A stretch of DNA of 64,000 nt from a phage. The translations under genes and the position numbers were made by a program. This document shows, piece after piece, positions 17,373-47,853 of this stretch. Positions within the stretch are counted from its first letter, which is position 1. Each line of letters starts with the position of its first letter. The stretch lies in the sequence record PZ154897.1. One strand, 5' to 3'. The notes beneath the pieces were generated by a model. It was not told where the DNA came from. It was given only the letters and a program-made list of their open reading frames with translations, and searched no databases.

Positions 17373-17843
17373 TTAATCATGTTTCCACACCCCATCGGTA
17401 TTTGACCAAAGTCGCTGATTATCTGAACCTCGCCACAGCTTTTTGGTTGGAAGATTTTTCTCATACTTCCCATCAATAATAACATCAACATATTTAAGCA
17501 TTTCTAGTTGTTTAATATCTTCAAACTTGTACCCTGTCCACAACCAAATGCTTTTATTTGGATAAAGATTTTTTACAGTTTGAACAATGCAATGAACATC
17601 ATCTCGGTTATCAGGATAAAGAGGGTCACCTCCAGTTATAGTTAATCCTTCTATATAATCATTATTCAAACATTCAATTAATTGTTCTAGTGTTTCACCA
17701 GTAAATGGAACGCCATTTCTAGCATTCCATGTTGATTTATTATAACACCCTTCGCATTTATGCAAACAACCTGTAACGAAAAGAACTGTCCTGCATCCAG
17801 GACCATTAACAAAGCAGCACGGGTATATTCTGTCATAATTCAT
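17373..17843 (-). CDS. nrdG: anaerobic ribonucleotide reductase activating protein NrdG (radical SAM)
   Basis: 156 aa from MNYDRIYPCCFVNGPGCRTVLFVTGCLHKCEGCYNK; Cys cluster CxxxCxxC; start ATG overlaps upstream stop (ATGA). Confidence 0.9.
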   Translation of the reverse strand: MNYDRIYPCCFVNGPGCRTVLFVTGCLHKCEGCYNKSTWNARNGVPFTGETLEQLIECLNNDYIEGLTITGGDPLYPDNRDDVHCIVQTVKNLYPNKSIWLWTGYKFEDIKQLEMLKYVDVIIDGKYEKNLPTKKLWRGSDNQRLWSNTDGVWKHD

Positions 17844-18670
17844 AATAATATCCAATTTTTCCAAGCTTCATCAGTAGAATTACAGCGTTTTAGTATAAGA
17901 TGTCTAGAAACTTTTATGGCATTTGAGCACTTTTTAATTGAATCATATTTAATACCGTCAACTGAAACGGTTTTGCTAGTTGGAGAAATTTTTCCATACA
18001 TTGGATTTTTTGAACCAACTTGAAGTCCTTTTAAAGCTTTTGAAAGCTTTTGTCTAGATTCCAATGACATGGGAGAATTCTTTTTACCTTCAATAATTCG
18101 CTTGCGATGAAGTTCGCGTTCTTCTTCACTCAAAGAATTGTAATATTTTTTAACACCGTTTGATATAGATAATTTATCTTTCTCAGACCGCTCTCCAGCT
18201 AATTTACTTCTAACATCTTTTCGCTTCATAGCTATGCTTACGGCTTTATTTAAATTTGCTTGATGCTCTGGCGTACGTTTATATTTCTTTAAAGCACGTG
18301 AAATAGCTATTTTAGTTTCTTCTGTTCTCTTTTTACCTTTATTTGCTAAACTATTTTTGCGGCGATGTTCAAGTGTCTGTTCATAGGCAGTTCCACCTTT
18401 TCCACCAGGTTTAATATTATATGTATTTTCTTTTAGACAATACTCTTCGGTTACAAGTTCAGCTTCTTTATCATACATTTGTTTTTCATTATCAAAAACA
18501 TGTAAAATTTCTTTATTAAAATTTTTTCTACCATATTTTAATAAAGCGGCACGAATCAATGTTCCTGACCCCATATAACCGTCATTTATGTTATCGGTGC
18601 TATGCGCACCGATATATTCCTTTGAATTAATTATATTTGTTATTTTATAAATTATATAATACCTATGCAT
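17840..18670 (-). CDS. GIY-YIG homing endonuclease (seg-like) with NUMOD-type DNA-binding repeats
   Basis: 276 aa; N-terminus YYIIYKITNIINSKEYIGAHST...YNIKPGG; about half the N-terminal residues match the segB-like ORF at 46478; overlaps nrdD stop and nrdG start. Confidence 0.8.
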   Translation of the reverse strand: MHRYYIIYKITNIINSKEYIGAHSTDNINDGYMGSGTLIRAALLKYGRKNFNKEILHVFDNEKQMYDKEAELVTEEYCLKENTYNIKPGGKGGTAYEQTLEHRRKNSLANKGKKRTEETKIAISRALKKYKRTPEHQANLNKAVSIAMKRKDVRSKLAGERSEKDKLSISNGVKKYYNSLSEEERELHRKRIIEGKKNSPMSLESRQKLSKALKGLQVGSKNPMYGKISPTSKTVSVDGIKYDSIKKCSNAIKVSRHLILKRCNSTDEAWKNWILL

Positions 18671-20480
18671 GTTTTACTCGTTTTACCATTTCTTTCATTT
18701 TACCTAAATTCCATGGAACAACGCTAGGAGTTCCAAGATATCCGCATGTTCTTCTTATTGTGTTCATCTTTTTAGGATCAGTTTCTCCACAAATAGAACA
18801 AACAAATCCGTTTTCAGTAGGAGTCATTTCATGGGTACTTCCGCATGTAAAACATTTATCTACCGGCATGTTAACACCAAAATAATCTAAATGTTGTGCA
18901 GCATAATCCCATATGGCCTCAAGGCCTTTTAAGTTATTTTTCATATCAGGAAGTTCAACATAAGAAATGTGACCACCTGTCGCAATGAAATGATATGGCG
19001 CTTCACGAGAAATCTTTTCAAACGGAGTAATATTTTCTTCTACTGAAACGTGGAAACTGTTAGTGTACCAGCCTTTATCAGTAACATCCTTTACACTTCC
19101 ATATTTTTCAGTATCAAGTTTACAGAAGCGATAGCACAGGTTTTCAGCAGGTGTAGAATACAAGCTAAAAGCAAAACCGGTTCTTTCAGTCCACTGCTTA
19201 AGACGAGTATTCATTTTAGTTAAAATTTCTTGTCCAATATCACGACCAACAAGAATATTCAATTCGTGAATACCAATGTATCCTAGGGACACTGAACTTC
19301 TACCGTTTTTAAATAACTCAATTATATCATCATCGGGTTTAAGACGAACCCCGAATGCACCTTCTTGGTAAAGAATAGGAGCAACAGTAGCTTTAACTCC
19401 TTTTAAGGAACTAATTCTACACATCAATGCTTCAAAACATAAATCAATTCGTTCATTGAACAATTCGGCAAATTTCTGTTCATTGAACTGTGTTCCAATA
19501 TAAGAATCTAGCGCAATGCGAGGAAGATTCAGTGTTACAACGCCAAGATTATTACGTCCATCAAGAATTTCATTACCAGTCGAATCTTTCCATACGCTCA
19601 AGAAACTGCGGCAACCCATTGGAGAAACAGGAATAGATGAACCTGTGATAGCTTTATTGTTCTTAGCCGAAATGATGTCAGGATACATTCTTTTGCTTGC
19701 ACACTCTAAAGCAAGCTGTTTAATATCATAGTTCGGATCGTCTTTATAAAGATTAACACCTTCTTCAACGAACATAACAAGTTTAGGGAAAATAGGAGTT
19801 ATCCCGTCACGACCAAGACCTTTAATACGATTTTTCAGAATTGCTTTCTGAATCATTCGTTCAGTCCAGTCAGTTCCCGTACCAAATGTAATTGTTACAA
19901 AAGGCGTTTGTCCGTTTGAACTAAAGAGAGTATTTACTTCATATTCATAAGCTTGGAACGCATCGTATACATCTTTTTCTGTTTTAGATTGGGCATAATT
20001 CAATGCATCTGCGATTTGCCATTTTTCCGCGTCCTCAATATGTTTCGCATAGGTGCGTTTAACATAAGGAGAAAGTACTTTATCTACATTCGCAAAAGTC
20101 GTTCCACCATATTGATGGGAAGCAACCTGTGCAGTAATTTGTGCCATAATTGCAGTAGCAACACCGATTGATTTAGGAGTTTCAATCTGTGCATTACCGA
20201 GCTTAAACCCGTTCTCAAGCATTCCTTTTAAATCTACTAAACAACAATTAGTAAAAGGCAATGATATACTGTAATCTAAATCATGAAAATGAATTAATCC
20301 GACGTTATGAGCATTTACAATATGGCTTGGAAGAATACTACAAGCGATATGTTTAGAAACAATACCAGCCATTAAATCTCTTTTTGTTGGAAAGACACGA
20401 GAATCTTTGTTGGCATTTTCGGTATTTAATTCTTTATCTTTATTTGAAATAAAATTTAAAACATCTTTCTCTAAAGACAT
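18663..20480 (-). CDS. nrdD: anaerobic ribonucleoside-triphosphate reductase NrdD (glycyl-radical enzyme), intron-less
   Basis: continuous 605-aa ORF; C-terminal Zn-ribbon CFTCGSTHEMTPTENGFVCSICG and glycyl-radical region RTCGYLGTP. Confidence 0.95.
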   Translation of the reverse strand: MSLEKDVLNFISNKDKELNTENANKDSRVFPTKRDLMAGIVSKHIACSILPSHIVNAHNVGLIHFHDLDYSISLPFTNCCLVDLKGMLENGFKLGNAQIETPKSIGVATAIMAQITAQVASHQYGGTTFANVDKVLSPYVKRTYAKHIEDAEKWQIADALNYAQSKTEKDVYDAFQAYEYEVNTLFSSNGQTPFVTITFGTGTDWTERMIQKAILKNRIKGLGRDGITPIFPKLVMFVEEGVNLYKDDPNYDIKQLALECASKRMYPDIISAKNNKAITGSSIPVSPMGCRSFLSVWKDSTGNEILDGRNNLGVVTLNLPRIALDSYIGTQFNEQKFAELFNERIDLCFEALMCRISSLKGVKATVAPILYQEGAFGVRLKPDDDIIELFKNGRSSVSLGYIGIHELNILVGRDIGQEILTKMNTRLKQWTERTGFAFSLYSTPAENLCYRFCKLDTEKYGSVKDVTDKGWYTNSFHVSVEENITPFEKISREAPYHFIATGGHISYVELPDMKNNLKGLEAIWDYAAQHLDYFGVNMPVDKCFTCGSTHEMTPTENGFVCSICGETDPKKMNTIRRTCGYLGTPSVVPWNLGKMKEMVKRVKHA

Positions 20481-21292
20481 AATTCTAATTTATCCTTTTG
20501 AAATTCTTCGTCTAAATATGGGTTCCAACCCATTTTAAACCTTTTGATGAAATTATCAATTCTAAATTTCGGTAAGTTTAAATCCGCAAAAATAGATGAT
20601 TTACTTTTAAAATATGGACCTAAATAATCATATAAAATTTCTGCGTATTTTAACCATAATATACAAGTACCAGATTTAATTGCTCTCGGAGTTTTCCAAG
20701 GTTTTACACCATACATCGGATTTCCACTTCCTTTATGCCTGATAGAAGATGAAATTCCAATTTTAATTTTAGCTTCCTTTGTGTGCGAAAATCCATGATG
20801 TGGATTTTCTTTCCAGTATTTTTTAGAAGCTTCTGATATTTTCTTTCTGGCTAAATTAGTATGATGCTTTCCATAAAATCCATGATTTTTACCTTTATTA
20901 CGATTTCTTTTAATCATGGTTATTGATTGCTTTTCTCTAGTTTCTTTAGAAGGAGAAATACCATACGTTGTAAATTGACCGTCAGCATATGCTAAATTGA
21001 AATACTCTTTATTCCATATATCTTTTTCTATATTCTTTTGAAATTCAGCTTCAATGCTAGTTATTTGTTCATCTCCGACTAATTGAAAATATAATATTTC
21101 AACTTTCGGCGTTTCTTTCAACAGGGCTTTTTGAAATTCGGAAGATGACGAAGACGAATAATAAAATTTACCATTTTTATCAATAATATTCGTTCCGTCA
21201 AAAGTGCAATTGGTTTTACTTCCAATATAATAATATGGCGGGGTTTTAGCATTAATTCTACTAATAAATGATAGTTTATATACTACATTCAT
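20471..21292 (-). CDS. GIY-YIG-like homing endonuclease (degenerate motif) with NUMOD3 repeats
   Basis: 273 aa; VYKLSFISRINAKTPPYYYIGSKTN; repeats NHGFYGKHHTNLARKKISEASKK / HHGFSHTKEAKIKIGISS / GSGNPMYGVKPWK; very AT-rich; overlaps nrdD start by 10 nt. Confidence 0.6.
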   Translation of the reverse strand: MNVVYKLSFISRINAKTPPYYYIGSKTNCTFDGTNIIDKNGKFYYSSSSSSEFQKALLKETPKVEILYFQLVGDEQITSIEAEFQKNIEKDIWNKEYFNLAYADGQFTTYGISPSKETREKQSITMIKRNRNKGKNHGFYGKHHTNLARKKISEASKKYWKENPHHGFSHTKEAKIKIGISSSIRHKGSGNPMYGVKPWKTPRAIKSGTCILWLKYAEILYDYLGPYFKSKSSIFADLNLPKFRIDNFIKRFKMGWNPYLDEEFQKDKLELCL

Positions 21293-38046: not shown

Positions 38047-38508
38047 TCATTGAGTTTTAATTACTGCTTTAGAAGCCTTTCCTGGTAAACGACGACTGTT
38101 GATAATTGCCATCCTACATTGAAGTGACGGGTCTTTGAACTTCGCATTAGGTTTACAAACTGTAAATCCAAGCCAAAGATTTCCATCAGTGATTTCTAAA
38201 CGCCCAGGACGATATTCAACCCCATCAATAAAATCCTCGTCAATGTCAGGACGCGGAGGCATACTCAGGAATTCATTAACTTCTAAAACATGGTCTTTTA
38301 TTTTATGGAATAATTCAAAAACATATGTCTCATCAATCTCCCGTTGAATTGCACGATCAAGAAGATGTTGAGAATATTTTAGATGAAACGATGAGACCCC
38401 TGCTGCTTTTGATGCCTCACGAATCTCATTGTTAATTTGACGAAACTCCGACTCAAAGTGACGACGAAGCTTATTTCGACGGATAAAAACTTCTGTATTG
38501 ATAGTCAT
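38047..38508 (-). CDS. regB: site-specific RNA endonuclease RegB
   Basis: 153 aa; size and position (upstream of denV, downstream of early promoter) as T4 regB; identity from synteny and partial recall. Confidence 0.7.
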   Translation of the reverse strand: MTINTEVFIRRNKLRRHFESEFRQINNEIREASKAAGVSSFHLKYSQHLLDRAIQREIDETYVFELFHKIKDHVLEVNEFLSMPPRPDIDEDFIDGVEYRPGRLEITDGNLWLGFTVCKPNAKFKDPSLQCRMAIINSRRLPGKASKAVIKTQ

Positions 38509-38847: not shown

Positions 38848-39149
38848 TAATATTTTTCCTCTGGTTGGAACACAGCACGACAAGCCCACATACTGGCTTC
38901 TTTGAGTTTCGTTTTAGCAATAGTTAACTGATCAAGACTTTCAGCATAATTCTTTGCGAATTCGCAGTCTTCACAATTATCTAATGCTTCCCAGAATTCA
39001 TCGTATAAAGCATCAAAGATAAGTCCTAAACGAACTTCAGCGTCTTTGATAGCATTCACTTTACTGATTTTATCGTCAGTATGTGGCTTATAACCTTTAA
39101 TATCTTCAATCATATTTGACTTCCTCACCAGTGCATAAATCATATTCAA
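38847..39149 (-). CDS. hypothetical ~100-aa protein at the vs.4 position (candidate Acb2-type sponge by synteny only)
   Basis: second ORF after regB; size near T4 Vs.4; no sequence-level confirmation possible here. Confidence 0.35.
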
Positions 39150-39327
39150 CTAAACGAATAGGTTCATGAATGCCATATCCCTGAACAGAAATTTCTGTCG
39201 TAGGATAAATTCCACTAATATCACCCATATTCCACGCTTCATTAAATTGCTGTTCGCCTGAATTACTAAACCATTCGGCGAAAGCATTTAGCACATCTTT
39301 AGAACCTTCAATAATTATCTTTGCCAT
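39106..39327 (-). CDS. hypothetical small protein
   Basis: 73-aa ORF. Confidence 0.4.
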   Translation of the reverse strand: MAKIIIEGSKDVLNAFAEWFSNSGEQQFNEAWNMGDISGIYPTTEISVQGYGIHEPIRLVEYDLCTGEEVKYD

Positions 39328-39689
39328 TACAGACTCTCGGTAAAGGTACGAGCGATAACGTCGCGCTGCTGTTCCGGAGTCAGAGAGTTAAAGCGAACTG
39401 CATAACCGGATACACGGATGGTCAGCTGCGGATATTTTTCCGGATGCTTAACTGCATCTTCCAGAGTTTCACGACGCAGAACGTTAACGTTCAGGTGTTG
39501 ACCACCTTCAATTTTAACTGTAGGTTGTGTTTCAATTTCAATTTCACGGGCATGCAAACCATAGAAAATTTCTGGGTCTACAAAAGAGTCCTCTTTAAAG
39601 GTTTTAGAGACAATAATTCGTGCTTGAATACCGTCTTCAAAATAAATAGTACCTTTATGCGTGCCTTCAAGAATTTGATATGCTTTCAT
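39327..39689 (-). CDS. autonomous glycyl-radical cofactor (GrcA/YfiD-like)
   Basis: C-terminal ~60 aa [59 protein letters not shown] carry the RVSGY glycyl-radical motif; local GC and codon usage enterobacterial-like. Confidence 0.85.
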
Positions 39690-39697
39690 ATAACCTC

Positions 39698-40024
39698 TCA
39701 ATTAGAAAATAAATTTATCCAAGATTGCTCTTTAATTAAAAATGGCTCAGAATCATATGCCATTAAACTTTGGGTAATTAGTCCTTTAAAAGGCCCATCA
39801 ATAAATTCCATGGTAAAATATGGAATTTTATTCATTAATCTTGCATTAGGAGCAGTGCACAAAACTCTGCATCCTTTGAATACGCCTTTTTGTAATTTGT
39901 ATTGCTTAGGATAAAATTCGCTCAAGACGTTGTTATTTGCCAAAATTTCAAAATGATTCACCAATTTATTTTTAATAGTTTTTGGCGAAAAATAAAGATA
40001 TTCGAAAAGTTGCGTGTCTGTCAT
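39698..40024 (-). CDS. hypothetical protein
   Basis: ORF trimmed to internal Met ([15 protein letters not shown]...). Confidence 0.4.
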
Positions 40025-40611
40025 CATTGCATTCCAATCACAAAAAATTGAGGACGAGTAATACCACCAATGCAACATTTACTATTGCAGCAGTACTGTA
40101 CAGTGTCAATATGAGCATCATAAATCTTATCCATATCAGGAGATTTGACAGGCTCATCAATTATATATAAAATTCGCGAAAGAGATAAACCTCTGAACTT
40201 GCTTCCTTTATTACCAATAAAACTACACACAGAATCAGTAAATAAACGAAAACGTATATCATCATTAGAATAACGCGAAAATTCCTTTTTGATGTTATCT
40301 GCAGAAATTTTAGCATAAGCTGAACTATTAGAAAGAACAATAACTGTTCCACCGTCATACAACCAATTAGCGGCAAAATTAGTTACTGCAATTGATTTAC
40401 CGGATTGACGTCCACCATCTAGTCGAAGTGTGCAATACTGCTTAAGTAAGTCTTCAAATGGCAGGATATATTCGTTTTTACAAATTTCTTCTACTCTAGC
40501 ATCAGAATGGTGTGTAAAAGCATTCATCAGGGATAGATAAGGACCAGTTAAAAATGTTCTCATTTTGTTATCTCTAAATTTGGGCCATTCCGTGGCGCAT
40601 GAATTGTCCAT
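40024..40611 (-). CDS. small P-loop NTPase-like protein
   Basis: 195 aa; Walker A-like GGRQSGKS and Walker B-like ILYIIDEP. Confidence 0.45.
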   Translation of the reverse strand: MDNSCATEWPKFRDNKMRTFLTGPYLSLMNAFTHHSDARVEEICKNEYILPFEDLLKQYCTLRLDGGRQSGKSIAVTNFAANWLYDGGTVIVLSNSSAYAKISADNIKKEFSRYSNDDIRFRLFTDSVCSFIGNKGSKFRGLSLSRILYIIDEPVKSPDMDKIYDAHIDTVQYCCNSKCCIGGITRPQFFVIGMQ

Positions 40612-40708: not shown

Positions 40709-41125
40709 TTAAATGTAAATATTTTTGCCGTAATACTTGTACCAGTGTGGCTTCATTAAAATTTTTTCATCGAGTCGTTGTTGACTCAACCTAATAGCTG
40801 ATTTGCATGGATTATAATCATTTTTCCATTCTACTGGAATATCACTGATGTCAGGAACTTCAGTATCTTTTATACTAAACCCGCGTTTTAAGCATTCCGT
40901 TATAATGTCTGATTGACGCTTTCGCAAAAATTCTAACTTATCGTAAAAGAACGTAACATGACCAGAACCTAAAATAAACTCGGAAGATATTTTAAAATCT
41001 TTAACTCGTTTACCATTTGCCACGTGTTTACGAATTATACCAAAAACACGTGGCAATTCACGGTATTCTGCGATTAAATGCTGATCAGCAAGTTCAGATA
41101 CTAAAGTCAAATTAATACGAGTCAT
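40709..41125 (-). CDS. denV: endonuclease V (pyrimidine-dimer DNA glycosylase) DenV
   Basis: 138 aa [29 protein letters not shown]...WYKYYGK matches T4 endo V from memory. Confidence 0.95.
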
Positions 41126-41148
41126 TTTATCCCTCCAAGTAACTGTGA

Positions 41149-41181
41149 ATATACTATCACAGTTACTTGGAGAAAGTAAAC
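41149..41181 (-). promoter_or_regulatory. early sigma70-type promoter upstream of denV
   Basis: minus-strand GTTTAC (41176-41181) and TGATAGTATAT (41149-41159). Confidence 0.5.
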
Positions 41182-41185
41182 AACT

Positions 41186-41716
<531 letters not shown>

Positions 41717-46397: not shown

Positions 46398-46474
<77 letters not shown>

Positions 46475-46477
46475 TAA

Positions 46478-47143
46478 TTAAAATTTCATTTTTCGACCTT
46501 TAAACCATCCTTCTGGAATTGGGTCAGTTTTCTTAATACGTTTAGAAACTTTTTCATCTAATGAATGAATCCACATCATACCAAATTGGGAATTCTTTTC
46601 GCCCTGTTGGTGTTTATTTCTGGCGTGAGATTCTTTCATTTTATTAATAGTTTCAGGAGTATGGGTCTTACCCAAGAAAGATTTAATATTTAAAAATTTC
46701 TCTCTATACTTAGGATTATCCCAAAGCTGTTTAAACCTTTCTGAACCCATTTTACGATATTTTTCTTTAAGGTCTGGGTCGTTCTCAAATCTGGTTTTAA
46801 AAGCAGCAGCCCCTTTTAAGGAAGCTTCTTTCTTTTTATCCAAATATTCTTTAGTGTTTAAATGGTCCCAACCACCTTCACCACCTAATTTCAAATTATA
46901 AACATCAGGGCGCTTTAAAAACTCTTCAGTCACAATATTCTTTTCTGACTCAAACATAGAGGTTTTATCGTCAAAGAACTCTAATATTTCTTTAGAGAAA
47001 TTTTCTATACCATACTTGTCTTGGGCTCTTTTTAATAATTTACCAGAACCCATATATCCATCATCTAAATTTTCGGTAGAATGAGCGCCTATATAGATTT
47101 TATTATTAATTTTATTTGTTATTTTATAAGTGTAATGGAACAT
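46478..47143 (-). CDS. segB: GIY-YIG homing endonuclease in the tRNA cluster (segB-like)
   Basis: 221 aa; YTYKITNKINNKIYIGAHST...YNLKLGGEGG; paralog of 17840..18670; sits between tRNA subclusters as T4 segB does. Confidence 0.8.
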   Translation of the reverse strand: MFHYTYKITNKINNKIYIGAHSTENLDDGYMGSGKLLKRAQDKYGIENFSKEILEFFDDKTSMFESEKNIVTEEFLKRPDVYNLKLGGEGGWDHLNTKEYLDKKKEASLKGAAAFKTRFENDPDLKEKYRKMGSERFKQLWDNPKYREKFLNIKSFLGKTHTPETINKMKESHARNKHQQGEKNSQFGMMWIHSLDEKVSKRIKKTDPIPEGWFKGRKMKF

Positions 47144-47184
47144 AAATATCTCCTATTTCTAAGAGTATTTATGTTCCCAAAATA

Positions 47185-47256
47185 TGGCCCTGGGTGGAAT
47201 TGAACCACCATCTGGCGATTATGAGTCGCTTGCTTGAACCTTCCAGCTACAGGGCC
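47185..47256 (-). tRNA. tRNA-Ile (anticodon CAU, AUA-decoding type)
   Basis: hand-folded; anticodon loop CUCAUAA; T-arm GGTGG-TTCAATT-CCACC; acceptor GGCCCTG/CAGGGCC. Confidence 0.75.
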
Positions 47257-47263
47257 TTGATAT

Positions 47264-47335
47264 GCTGATTGACGGAATCGAACCGCCGACATCCTCATTA
47301 CAAGTGAGGTGCTCTACCTACTGAGCTAAATCAGC
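47264..47335 (-). tRNA. tRNA-Thr (anticodon UGU)
   Basis: hand-folded; anticodon arm CCTCA-CTTGTAA-TGAGG; acceptor GCTGATT/AATCAGC. Confidence 0.8.
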
Positions 47336-47342
47336 GAAATTA

Positions 47343-47429
47343 CGGAGGCGATAGGATTTGAACCTATGAGTCACCGGAGCGACTGCCGGTTTTCAAGACC
47401 GGTGCATTAAACCACTCTGCCACGCCTCC
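47343..47429 (-). tRNA. tRNA-Ser (anticodon UGA), long variable arm
   Basis: hand-folded; anticodon arm CCGGT-CTTGAAA-ACCGG; acceptor GGAGGCG/CGCCTCC; 87 nt. Confidence 0.8.
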
Positions 47430-47431
47430 AG

Positions 47432-47505
47432 TCTCCGCGGCAGGATTTGAACCTGTGACATTCTGCTCCCAAAGCAGACGCTCTACCAAACTGAGCTACA
47501 CGGAG
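47432..47505 (-). tRNA. tRNA-Pro (anticodon UGG)
   Basis: hand-folded; anticodon arm TCTGC-TTTGGGA-GCAGA; 2-nt spacer to tRNA-Ser (dimeric precursor arrangement). Confidence 0.8.
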
Positions 47506-47517
47506 TAAATTAAATTT

Positions 47518-47589
<72 letters not shown>

Positions 47590-47595
47590 AAACTT

Positions 47596-47682
47596 TGGTA
47601 CGAGAAGTGGGACTCGAACCCACAAGGAAATCATTCCGCAGCATTTTAAGTGCTGTGCCTTTACCAATTTGACCATTCTCGC
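47596..47682 (-). tRNA. tRNA-Leu (anticodon UAA), long variable arm, CCA encoded
   Basis: hand-folded; anticodon arm CAGCA-CTTAAAA-TGCTG; T-arm GTGGG-TTCGAGT-CCCAC. Confidence 0.8.
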
Positions 47683-47683
47683 G

Positions 47684-47755
47684 CGGGGAATAAAGGACTC
47701 GAACCTTTGCATCTAGCAGTCAAAGTGCTATGCCTTACCAACTTGGCTAATTCCC
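47684..47755 (-). tRNA. tRNA-Gln (anticodon UUG)
   Basis: hand-folded; anticodon arm TAGCA-CTTTGAC-TGCTA; T-arm AAAGG-TTCGAGT-CCTTT; weak 1:72 pair. Confidence 0.75.
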
Positions 47756-47853
47756 AATTATTAACAAAGGCTCTCTAACAAGAACCCTTGATGATAGAGG
47801 GTATTAATCAGTGCGATATGAGTTAATAATAACAAATAATTCTTAAAGCATAT

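Follow-up and report, generated by a model that had tools for sequence, protein, structure and literature searches.

How does the gene of a strictly lytic phage come to share half of its length, base for base, with a gene of its host? The question is raised by vs.6, a small gene in a T4-like phage of which a stretch of 64,000 nucleotides (sequence record PZ154897.1; hereafter, the window) was analyzed. The gene encodes a protein related to GrcA (YfiD), the autonomous glycyl-radical cofactor of Escherichia coli, and it can be divided as follows:

39327..39689, minus strand: vs.6 coding sequence, predicted phage autonomous glycyl-radical cofactor, 120 amino acids plus stop (from the open reading frame (ORF), T4 identity and synteny, and Pfam, NCBIfam and PDB matches)
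39512..39689, minus strand: phage-type 5' half, AT-rich, with a GC content at third codon positions (GC3) of 0.20; diverged homologue of the GrcA N-terminal region (from alignment)
39340..39511, minus strand: tract derived from the host, probably by conversion, whose 172 nt match E. coli grcA without a difference, encoding EGGQHLNV...RTFT, the structured glycyl-radical domain (from alignment)
39327..39339, minus strand: phage-type 3' end, ACC GAG AGT CTG TAA from the third base of ACC, which holds the 3' junction (from alignment)

In all likelihood, vs.6 is a cofactor gene of the T4 family that descends from an old phage copy of grcA and whose 3' half has been overwritten, recurrently, by gene conversion from the grcA gene of the host.

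The host-identical tract

The identity between vs.6 and E. coli grcA runs without interruption over 172 consecutive bases (39340..39511). The last 185 nt of the gene (39327..39511), which include the 3 synonymous differences of the 3' end (39327..39339), are 98.4% identical to grcA in every complete E. coli genome (5,426/5,426). When grcA genes are compared in register between enterobacterial species, the median of the longest exact run is only 18 nt, and its 95th percentile is 34 nt. None of the ~42 synonymous sites of the tract has changed with respect to E. coli (synonymous divergence, dS, of 0), and dS rises to 0.05 against another Escherichia species, 0.40 against Citrobacter amalonaticus, 0.74 against a Klebsiella metagenome-assembled genome (MAG) and 1.2 against Salmonella. 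The grcA gene of C. amalonaticus encodes the same 61 residues and is only 90% identical to the phage in nucleotides, with 13 synonymous differences. Since the identity extends to synonymous sites, protein conservation cannot explain it. These comparisons point to E. coli specifically, and not to another enteric bacterium, as the donor of the tract. Salmonella was considered as a donor and rejected: when Salmonella grcA was compared with all phage records, none exceeded 90%, and the matches were E. coli-type alleles at about 83%, so that the sequenced phages show no patch of the Salmonella type.

The tract also stands out by its composition, with a GC content of 0.49 and a GC3 of 0.42, against 0.34 and 0.20, respectively, in the 5' half of vs.6. 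The ORFs of the window have a GC3 of 0.243 +/- 0.043 and never exceed 0.325. Only 0.35% of the 172-nt segments by GC, and 0.5% of the 57-codon segments within ORFs by GC3, are as GC-rich as the tract, and the sole stretch that is richer is a cluster of eight tRNA genes (46401..47756, minus strand). A megablast comparison of the whole 64 kb with E. coli genomes gave no match outside the vs.6 tract. A second match per E. coli genome recurs when the tract alone is used as query and thus arises from the tract; presumably it is the homologous end of pflB.

An earlier note on this DNA, made from the letters alone, had described a GC-rich 3' half on an AT-rich phage background and a C-terminus nearly identical to E. 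coli GrcA/YfiD, and had proposed a recent capture of the host 3' segment. All of this is borne out: residues 60-120 of Vs.6 are identical to residues 67-127 of GrcA (61/61), and the nucleotide alignment with grcA that the note had envisaged reveals more identity than protein conservation predicts and locates both junctions.

The junction on the 5' side immediately precedes GAAGGTGGT, with which EGGQHLNV begins and at which the similarity of the phage gene to the host gene becomes sufficient for pairing. That on the 3' side falls within the last four codons of vs.6 (ACY GAR AGY YTG), where the mixtures of E. coli-type and phage-type bases differ among phages: T4 vs.6 is E. coli-like through ACT GAA, whereas the phage of the window switches at ACC GAG. 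The TAATG overlap with the following gene, vs.5, would limit the 3' extension of a host patch.

The phage-type 5' half and the direction of transfer

The 5' half of vs.6 has only ~45-50% nucleotide identity to grcA, and its nearest relatives are the phage orthologues. The N-terminus MKAYQILEG... is also present in the vs.6 products of Mosigvirus, Jiaodavirus, Slopekvirus, Pseudotevenvirus and Karamvirus phages, and the opening MKAYQ in a T5-like phage; the phage-type N-terminal half is common to T4, JK36, Shinkou, PKO111, phT4A, leE, CC31 and RB43. The N-terminal half is not foreign: residues 22-60 still align to GrcA 28-66 at ~35% identity. The description of the N-terminal ~60 amino acids as phage-like in the earlier note stands for their AT-rich composition and their sharing among phages, but not in the sense of an unrelated sequence. 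We interpret vs.6 as an old phage copy of grcA that drifted to phage composition and whose 3' half was replaced later, i.e., as a gene-conversion patch and not a fusion.

E. coli grcA itself has no compositional jump, with a GC3 of 0.42 both in the tract and in the 5' half. The divergence of other host genes from it is as follows:

Citrobacter versus E. coli grcA: dS 0.60 in the 5' half, 0.42 in the tract
Salmonella versus E. coli grcA: dS 0.85 in the 5' half, 1.13 in the tract
Klebsiella-like metagenomic contig (L171) versus E. coli grcA: dS 0.75 in the 5' half, 0.59 in the tract

Because the two halves of the host grcA genes diverge in step, with an even GC3, and the phage gene is the mosaic one, the transfer ran from host to phage. 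The marks of the exchange described for cyanophage psbA are present here: the segment departs in composition from the phage genome and matches the host, and the relatedness is specific to each segment, the tract going with E. coli and the 5' half with phages.

Orthologues without the patch and age of the tract

The 3' halves of the vs.6 genes of CC31 and RB43 and of the vs.6-like gene of the T5-like phage DT57C are 71-83% identical to E. coli grcA. In Enterobacter phage CC31 and its relatives the tract has a phage-like GC3 (0.21-0.29), with a dS of 1.1 both between these phages and E. coli and between the window tract and the CC31 orthologue. The tract is 80-84% identical to E. coli grcA in RB43, RB16-type, Slopekvirus and Cronobacter phages, and 71% identical in a T5-like phage grown on E. 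coli. The vs.6 genes of CC31 (Karamvirus) and RB43 (Pseudotevenvirus) resemble that of the window in their MKAYQ/MNAYQ... N-terminus, their length, their radical domain at the protein level and their T4-type gene position. The T5-like genes are also alike in N-terminus, length and radical domain, but their context differs, as they lie beside tRNA genes. The CC31, RB43 and T5-like genes appear to represent the state without a recent patch, and the E. coli tract is, to judge from these sequences, not ancestral to the phage family.

The comparison of the window with the Av-05/JK36 (Mosigvirus-type) lineage bears on the age of the tract. Between the two, dS is 0.35 in the 5' half and 0 in the tract (0/42 synonymous sites; Fisher p=2e-4). 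In a 2.7-kb alignment the flanks are 72-90% identical, the 5' half 87-93%, the tract 98-100% and the sequence directly downstream 74%, and this island of identity between two phage lineages coincides with the stretch homologous to E. coli. The tract is thus younger than the split of the phage lineages that carry it.

Two other observations concern the distribution of such genes. Jumbo Klebsiella phages near K64-1 (L117/L118, L090) carry a small GrcA-like gene, located near an anaerobic ribonucleotide reductase gene, and DT57C (L088 320-688), which belongs to a phage family unrelated to the T4 type, has a GrcA-like gene with the same MKAYQ start as vs.6. The phage-type grcA gene appears to move between phage families.

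The tract in Klebsiella phages

The same architecture is found in the Jiaodavirus phages Shinkou and PKO111, where a phage-type 5' half with a GC content of 0.35-0.37 is followed by a tract with 0.53-0.55. This tract encodes the L..E variant (ETLLDAVEHPEKY) of the Klebsiella-group GrcA, the E. coli variant being E..K. No close donor was present among the GTDB representatives retrieved, and the Klebsiella MAG (L025) was discarded as donor, being only 83-87% identical. A closer donor was sought by scanning metagenomes with a pattern taken from the phage tract. The scan returned 28 stretches, most of them on contigs of up to ~620 kb, with a GC content of 0.53-0.58 in the fetched DNA, and most of the matches encode a full bacterial GrcA (MITGIQ...CLCAKGGFAEDD...). 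Among the GTDB representatives retrieved, these donor-like contigs come closest to Raoultella and to a MAG of Klebsiella sp.

One of these Klebsiella-like grcA genes (L171 10255-10638), which lie on bacterial contigs with a GC content of 0.56-0.58, has an exact run of 158 nt (gene nt 181-338) in common with L177, a metagenomic phage contig of the Jiaodavirus type. Over this 158-nt stretch KPV15 shows one mismatch only, and Shinkou is 97.5% identical to the Klebsiella-like grcA. The 5' halves of the Jiaodavirus and Klebsiella-like genes are unalignable, and the 5' junction is that of the E. coli case (L083, L199, L200, L177). A total of 106 phage records, almost all of them from Klebsiella phages, are 95-99% identical to the Klebsiella-like grcA over nt 202-369/374, with varying 3' ends. 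These data argue that a Klebsiella-like grcA patched the vs.6 gene of Jiaodavirus independently of the E. coli event. The tract of PKO111 (host K. oxytoca; L084 413-775) differs from those of other Jiaodavirus phages at 13 synonymous sites (dS of 0.43 in the tract against 0.21 for the 5' half), and from the K. pneumoniae-like donor gene it differs at 15. Raoultella grcA has several of the same variants, which hints at a third donor, possibly K. oxytoca.

Some records in this group are peculiar. In KPV15 (L200 322-683/L116), vs.6 has an intact host-identical 3' tract but an out-of-frame 5' half, for which two short coding sequences are annotated; the broken half is either a pseudogene or a sequencing error. 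The phage vB_Kpn_AM_K4 (L201 2324-2686), with a record of unusual length (288,685 bp), has its vs.6, which is of the Jiaodavirus type and bears the Klebsiella tract, in another gene context, with tRNA genes as neighbors; it may represent a separate phage lineage, or else the assembly may be chimeric. An IMG/VR contig (L119 990-1497; IMGVR_UViG_2706794630_000006) with 91% identity to Yersinia grcA was evaluated as a further phage event and rejected: the GrcA encoded there is bacterial and complete (MITGIQ...), so that the contig holds host DNA taken in by a provirus call.

Proposed gene conversion and its alternatives

We propose that during infection fragments of the host chromosome bearing grcA would pair with vs.6 across the conserved region that encodes the radical domain, and that the T4 recombination system would copy host sequence into the phage. 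On the 5' side the patch would stop at the limit of homology, and on the 3' side an extension past the stop codon would destroy the overlapping start of vs.5. Once a first patch is in place, 170 nt of perfect homology should ease later conversions, keeping the tract identical to that of the current host, and repeated conversion would also preserve the host-specific residues (E..K in E. coli, L..E in Klebsiella). Such patches may be favored by selection, for a match to host-specific residues or to codon usage, or may be neutral by-products.

The pattern of the tract fits repeated conversion from E. coli in separate phage lineages. More than one independent event can be distinguished, as in the psbA case, with an E. 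coli-type tract in Tequatrovirus and Mosigvirus and a Klebsiella-like one in Jiaodavirus, and this parallel patch from a different host implies that the patching process recurs. Repetition within the E. coli phages (Tequatrovirus and Mosigvirus) is suggested by the sequences, not proven.

Several points weigh against recurrent conversion of a cofactor gene. T4 degrades host DNA early, so recombination with host DNA must be rare. The 5' junction shared by all E. coli-type phages suits a single capture as well as it suits repeats limited by homology, and the zero divergence of the tract between E. coli-phage lineages could reflect the exchange of a recent patch from phage to phage. When the internal variants of one phage allele (L091) were looked for in E. 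coli genomes, they did not turn up (best match, 97.3%), which lends no support to the idea that phage alleles track those of E. coli. The Klebsiella-like donor genus has been deduced from GC content and the nearest GTDB representatives. Finally, the score of Vs.6 with the GrcA model TIGR04365 (154.6) is below the trusted equivalog cut-off of 170, a shortfall due to the divergence of its N-terminal half.

Some of these points would agree with a single recent capture from E. coli in one phage, followed by spread among Tequatrovirus and Mosigvirus through phage-phage recombination in co-infection, which we regard as rather unlikely. T-even phages are known to recombine readily, the 5' junction is identical in all phages of the E. 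coli type, and the private L091 variants were not found in E. coli. However, the island of 98-100% identity matches the E. coli-homologous stretch to within ~20 nt on each side, without flanking phage DNA. Moreover, a single capture leaves unexplained the Klebsiella-phage patch, which shows conversion from host to phage at this site more than once.

The perfect 172-nt identity in several lineages might also suggest nucleic-acid mimicry of host grcA, perhaps as a decoy drawing off an RNA regulator or RNase of the host that acts on the grcA mRNA, which, according to the title of one paper, is a MazF target. We consider this very improbable, because there is no Rfam match nor any sign of an RNA element, the CC31, RB43 and T5-like phages retain the gene without the identity, and recombination accounts for the pattern without extra assumptions.

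No more credible is an ancient grcA copy without any recent transfer, its 3' half kept host-like by extreme purifying selection on the protein domain. The 61 C-terminal residues are in fact nearly invariant across hosts and phages, but the synonymous sites refute this explanation (0/42 differences from E. coli against 13 from Citrobacter, with the same residues), and identity is only 84% for phages whose protein sequence is the same (leE). An equally implausible scenario is that E. coli and Klebsiella gained the 3' half of grcA from phages. Two-way exchange has been proposed for cyanophage psbA (PMC1484495), but the concordant divergence and even GC3 of the host halves, the mosaic nature of the phage gene within its own genome and the existence of related phages without the sequence speak against it. 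An assembly or contamination artefact, with host reads merged into the phage assembly, is refuted by the same mosaic in the T4 reference and about 650 independently sequenced phage genomes and by the intact reading frame, which is in phase with the phage 5' half.

Returning to recurrent conversion, a bolder form of it, which we put forward tentatively and with some doubt, is that vs.6 is a standing hotspot, where host grcA rewrites the radical-domain half upon each new enterobacterial host and then keeps rewriting it.

Predicted function of Vs.6

The position of the predicted glycyl-radical site was computed and lies within the Pfam match described below:

39405..39407, minus strand: codon of Gly95 in the RVSGY motif, predicted glycyl-radical site

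The Pfam family Gly_radical (PF01228) matches residues 60-101 of Vs.6 with E=2.2e-18 (67 bits, the cut-off being 22). The best NCBIfam model is TIGR04365 (GrcA), with E=1.4e-45 and residues 20-120 aligned, and RefSeq names the T4 vs.6 product GrcA. Among PDB entries, Vs.6 matches GrcA (6OWR, E=4.6e-42) and residues 697-759 of the pyruvate formate-lyase (PFL) chains 1H16/1CM5 (E=4.8e-26). Gly95 is equivalent to G102 of GrcA and G734 of PflB (PMC8683613). The GrcA/YfiD class (TIGR04365, IPR011140) comprises small standalone proteins of ~14 kDa that are essentially a C-terminal glycyl-radical domain, and Vs.6 fits this description with its 120 residues, the RVSGY radical motif and a C-terminus matching PflB 697-759. 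It resembles E. coli GrcA (YfiD) in being a standalone protein of ~14 kDa with a PFL-type domain whose 61 C-terminal residues, RVSGY included, are identical, and published work assigns the same biochemical role to the T4 protein. It differs in being 7 residues shorter, with the first 21 residues unalignable and residues 22-60 only ~35% identical.

The earlier note had stated that the T4 homologue, Y06I, acts as a spare glycyl-radical domain. This role is indeed published: as reported in PMC8683613, Wagner et al. (2001) found that the PFL activase installs the radical on Y06I and that oxygen-cleaved PFL is reactivated. The relation can now be refined to that of orthologues (97.3% nucleotide identity). 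Vs.6 is accordingly described here as a predicted phage-encoded autonomous glycyl-radical cofactor, with the function already published for T4 Y06I. The host PFL activase would install a radical on Gly95, and the radical-bearing Vs.6 would dock on host PFL cleaved by oxygen at Gly734, substituting the lost radical domain, so that the fermentative production of acetyl-CoA and formate could be kept up during infection in low-oxygen habitats. In YfiD, the half at the N terminus is disordered, yet it is required to bind cleaved PFL and for efficient activation (PMC8683613). The half required for this binding is exactly the one that is phage-specific in Vs.6, and the phage N-terminal half may behave differently from that of YfiD.

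The earlier note had also drawn attention to the glycyl-radical enzyme NrdD. It is encoded in the window (18663..20480), together with NrdG (17373..17864), but this has no bearing on the interpretation, as nrdD lies 19 kb from vs.6 and BLASTP detected no similarity between Vs.6 and NrdD. The idea of Vs.6 as a spare part for NrdD was rejected as unsupported by sequence. The nrdD gene is an uninterrupted ORF of 605 amino acids flanked by two homing-endonuclease-like ORFs on the minus strand (17840..18670 and 20471..21292), one of 276 amino acids, with a GIY-YIG-like N-terminus recognized by eye, between nrdD and nrdG, and one of 273 amino acids, with a NUMOD3 motif (Pfam), between nrdD and the endonuclease VII gene.

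Gene start, neighborhood and orthology with T4 vs.6

The mechanical ORF listing places a TTG start at 39701 (ORF 39327..39701, minus strand). The start of vs.6 is probably the ATG at 39689, which gives 120 amino acids as in the annotation of T4 vs.6. The surrounding features are the following:

39694..39697, minus strand: GAGG, Shine-Dalgarno-like, 4 nt upstream of the ATG at 39689 and overlapping the vs.7 stop region (by reading the sequence)
39106..39327, minus strand: vs.5 homologue, whose ATG overlaps the vs.6 stop codon in TAATG (ORF list, T4 annotation and sequence)
39698..40078, minus strand: vs.7 homologue, upstream neighbor and synteny marker (ORF list and T4 annotation)
40709..41125, minus strand: denV (ORF list)
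41186..41680, minus strand: lysozyme gene e (ORF list)
38047..38508, minus strand: regB, encoding RegB (ORF list)

The gene order e, denV, vs.8, vs.7, vs.6, vs.5 ... regB, vs.1, all on the minus strand, is that of the T4 annotation, and the window belongs to a T4-like phage. Like T4 vs.6, the vs.6 gene of the window is on the strand of the early genes, within the denV-regB interval, where vs.7 and vs.5 are its neighbors. It is 97.3% identical in nucleotides to T4 vs.6 and 100% identical to the gene of Escherichia phage vB_EcoM_SYGD1, and about 650 phage records are at least 90% identical to it. The E. coli-identical tract is present in T4 as well, together with hundreds of Tequatrovirus and Mosigvirus genomes. 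Given the nucleotide identity and the shared vs.7-vs.6-vs.5 neighborhood, the ORF can be assigned as the orthologue of T4 vs.6 (Y06I), more than a mere homologue. The two genes have in common 118/120 encoded residues, the vs.8-vs.7-vs.6-vs.5-regB order and the E. coli-identical 3' tract; of the two substitutions between them, T54P belongs to the 5' half and R73H to the tract. The latter is due to the lone tract base of T4 vs.6 (L002 2512-2874) that differs from E. coli, a nonsynonymous change from CGT to CAT that is absent from the other phages examined.

A plus-strand ORF of 197 amino acids (39321..39914) was rejected as a gene, being the antisense shadow of vs.6 and vs.7. No Rfam family matched in the region around vs.6, and no excess of promoter-like or terminator-like sites was found around the gene. 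In the window e and denV adjoin (40709..41680), whereas in T4 ipIII and ipII lie upstream of denV; the T4 stretch fetched stopped short of e.

Precedent and meaning

Recombination within a gene between host and phage is known for psbA/psbD of cyanophages (Zeidner 2005; Sullivan 2006, PMC1484495). As in vs.6, a host-derived metabolic gene of a T4-like phage has a patchy GC content, its segments trace to host alleles, and the exchange is confined to part of the gene and has happened several times. The vs.6 case differs from psbA in that the donor is identifiable to the species and the patch matches it at every base between sharp limits. The location of the patch is common to two phage genera with two host genera, and outside it vs.6 has diverged from the host much further than psbA has. 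Neither the nucleotide mosaic of vs.6/Y06I nor its recurrence was found in the searchable literature, where only functional or domain-level mentions appeared, and the 2003 T4 genome review may mention the identity. The gene and its biochemical role were thus already known, and it is the recurrent conversion from host to lytic phage that is probably under-described.

The E. coli-type tract also occurs in phages whose isolation host was Yersinia, Salmonella or Hafnia, and the Klebsiella-type one in a Jiaodavirus obtained on Salmonella; the records concerned include Yersinia phage fPS-65 (LR215724), Salmonella phage Lv5cm (MZ150757), a Hafnia phage (MW749000) and Salmonella phage PSE-D1 (ON550260). 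What the tract reflects may be the natural host of the recent past, and not the one used for isolation, and as a marker of the natural host it could help to interpret the host range of therapeutic T4-like phages.

With vs.6, recombination between the host chromosome and a strictly lytic phage that destroys host DNA comes into view with unusual clarity: the donor is resolved to the species, and both junctions are visible. The independent patch in the Klebsiella phages suggests either selection to match the repair part of the host PFL or a recombination hotspot created by the conserved domain. If vs.6 is indeed a standing hotspot, it would represent concerted evolution between a gene of a virulent phage and its host homologue, and would provide a tractable system for the rates of recombination from host to lytic phage.

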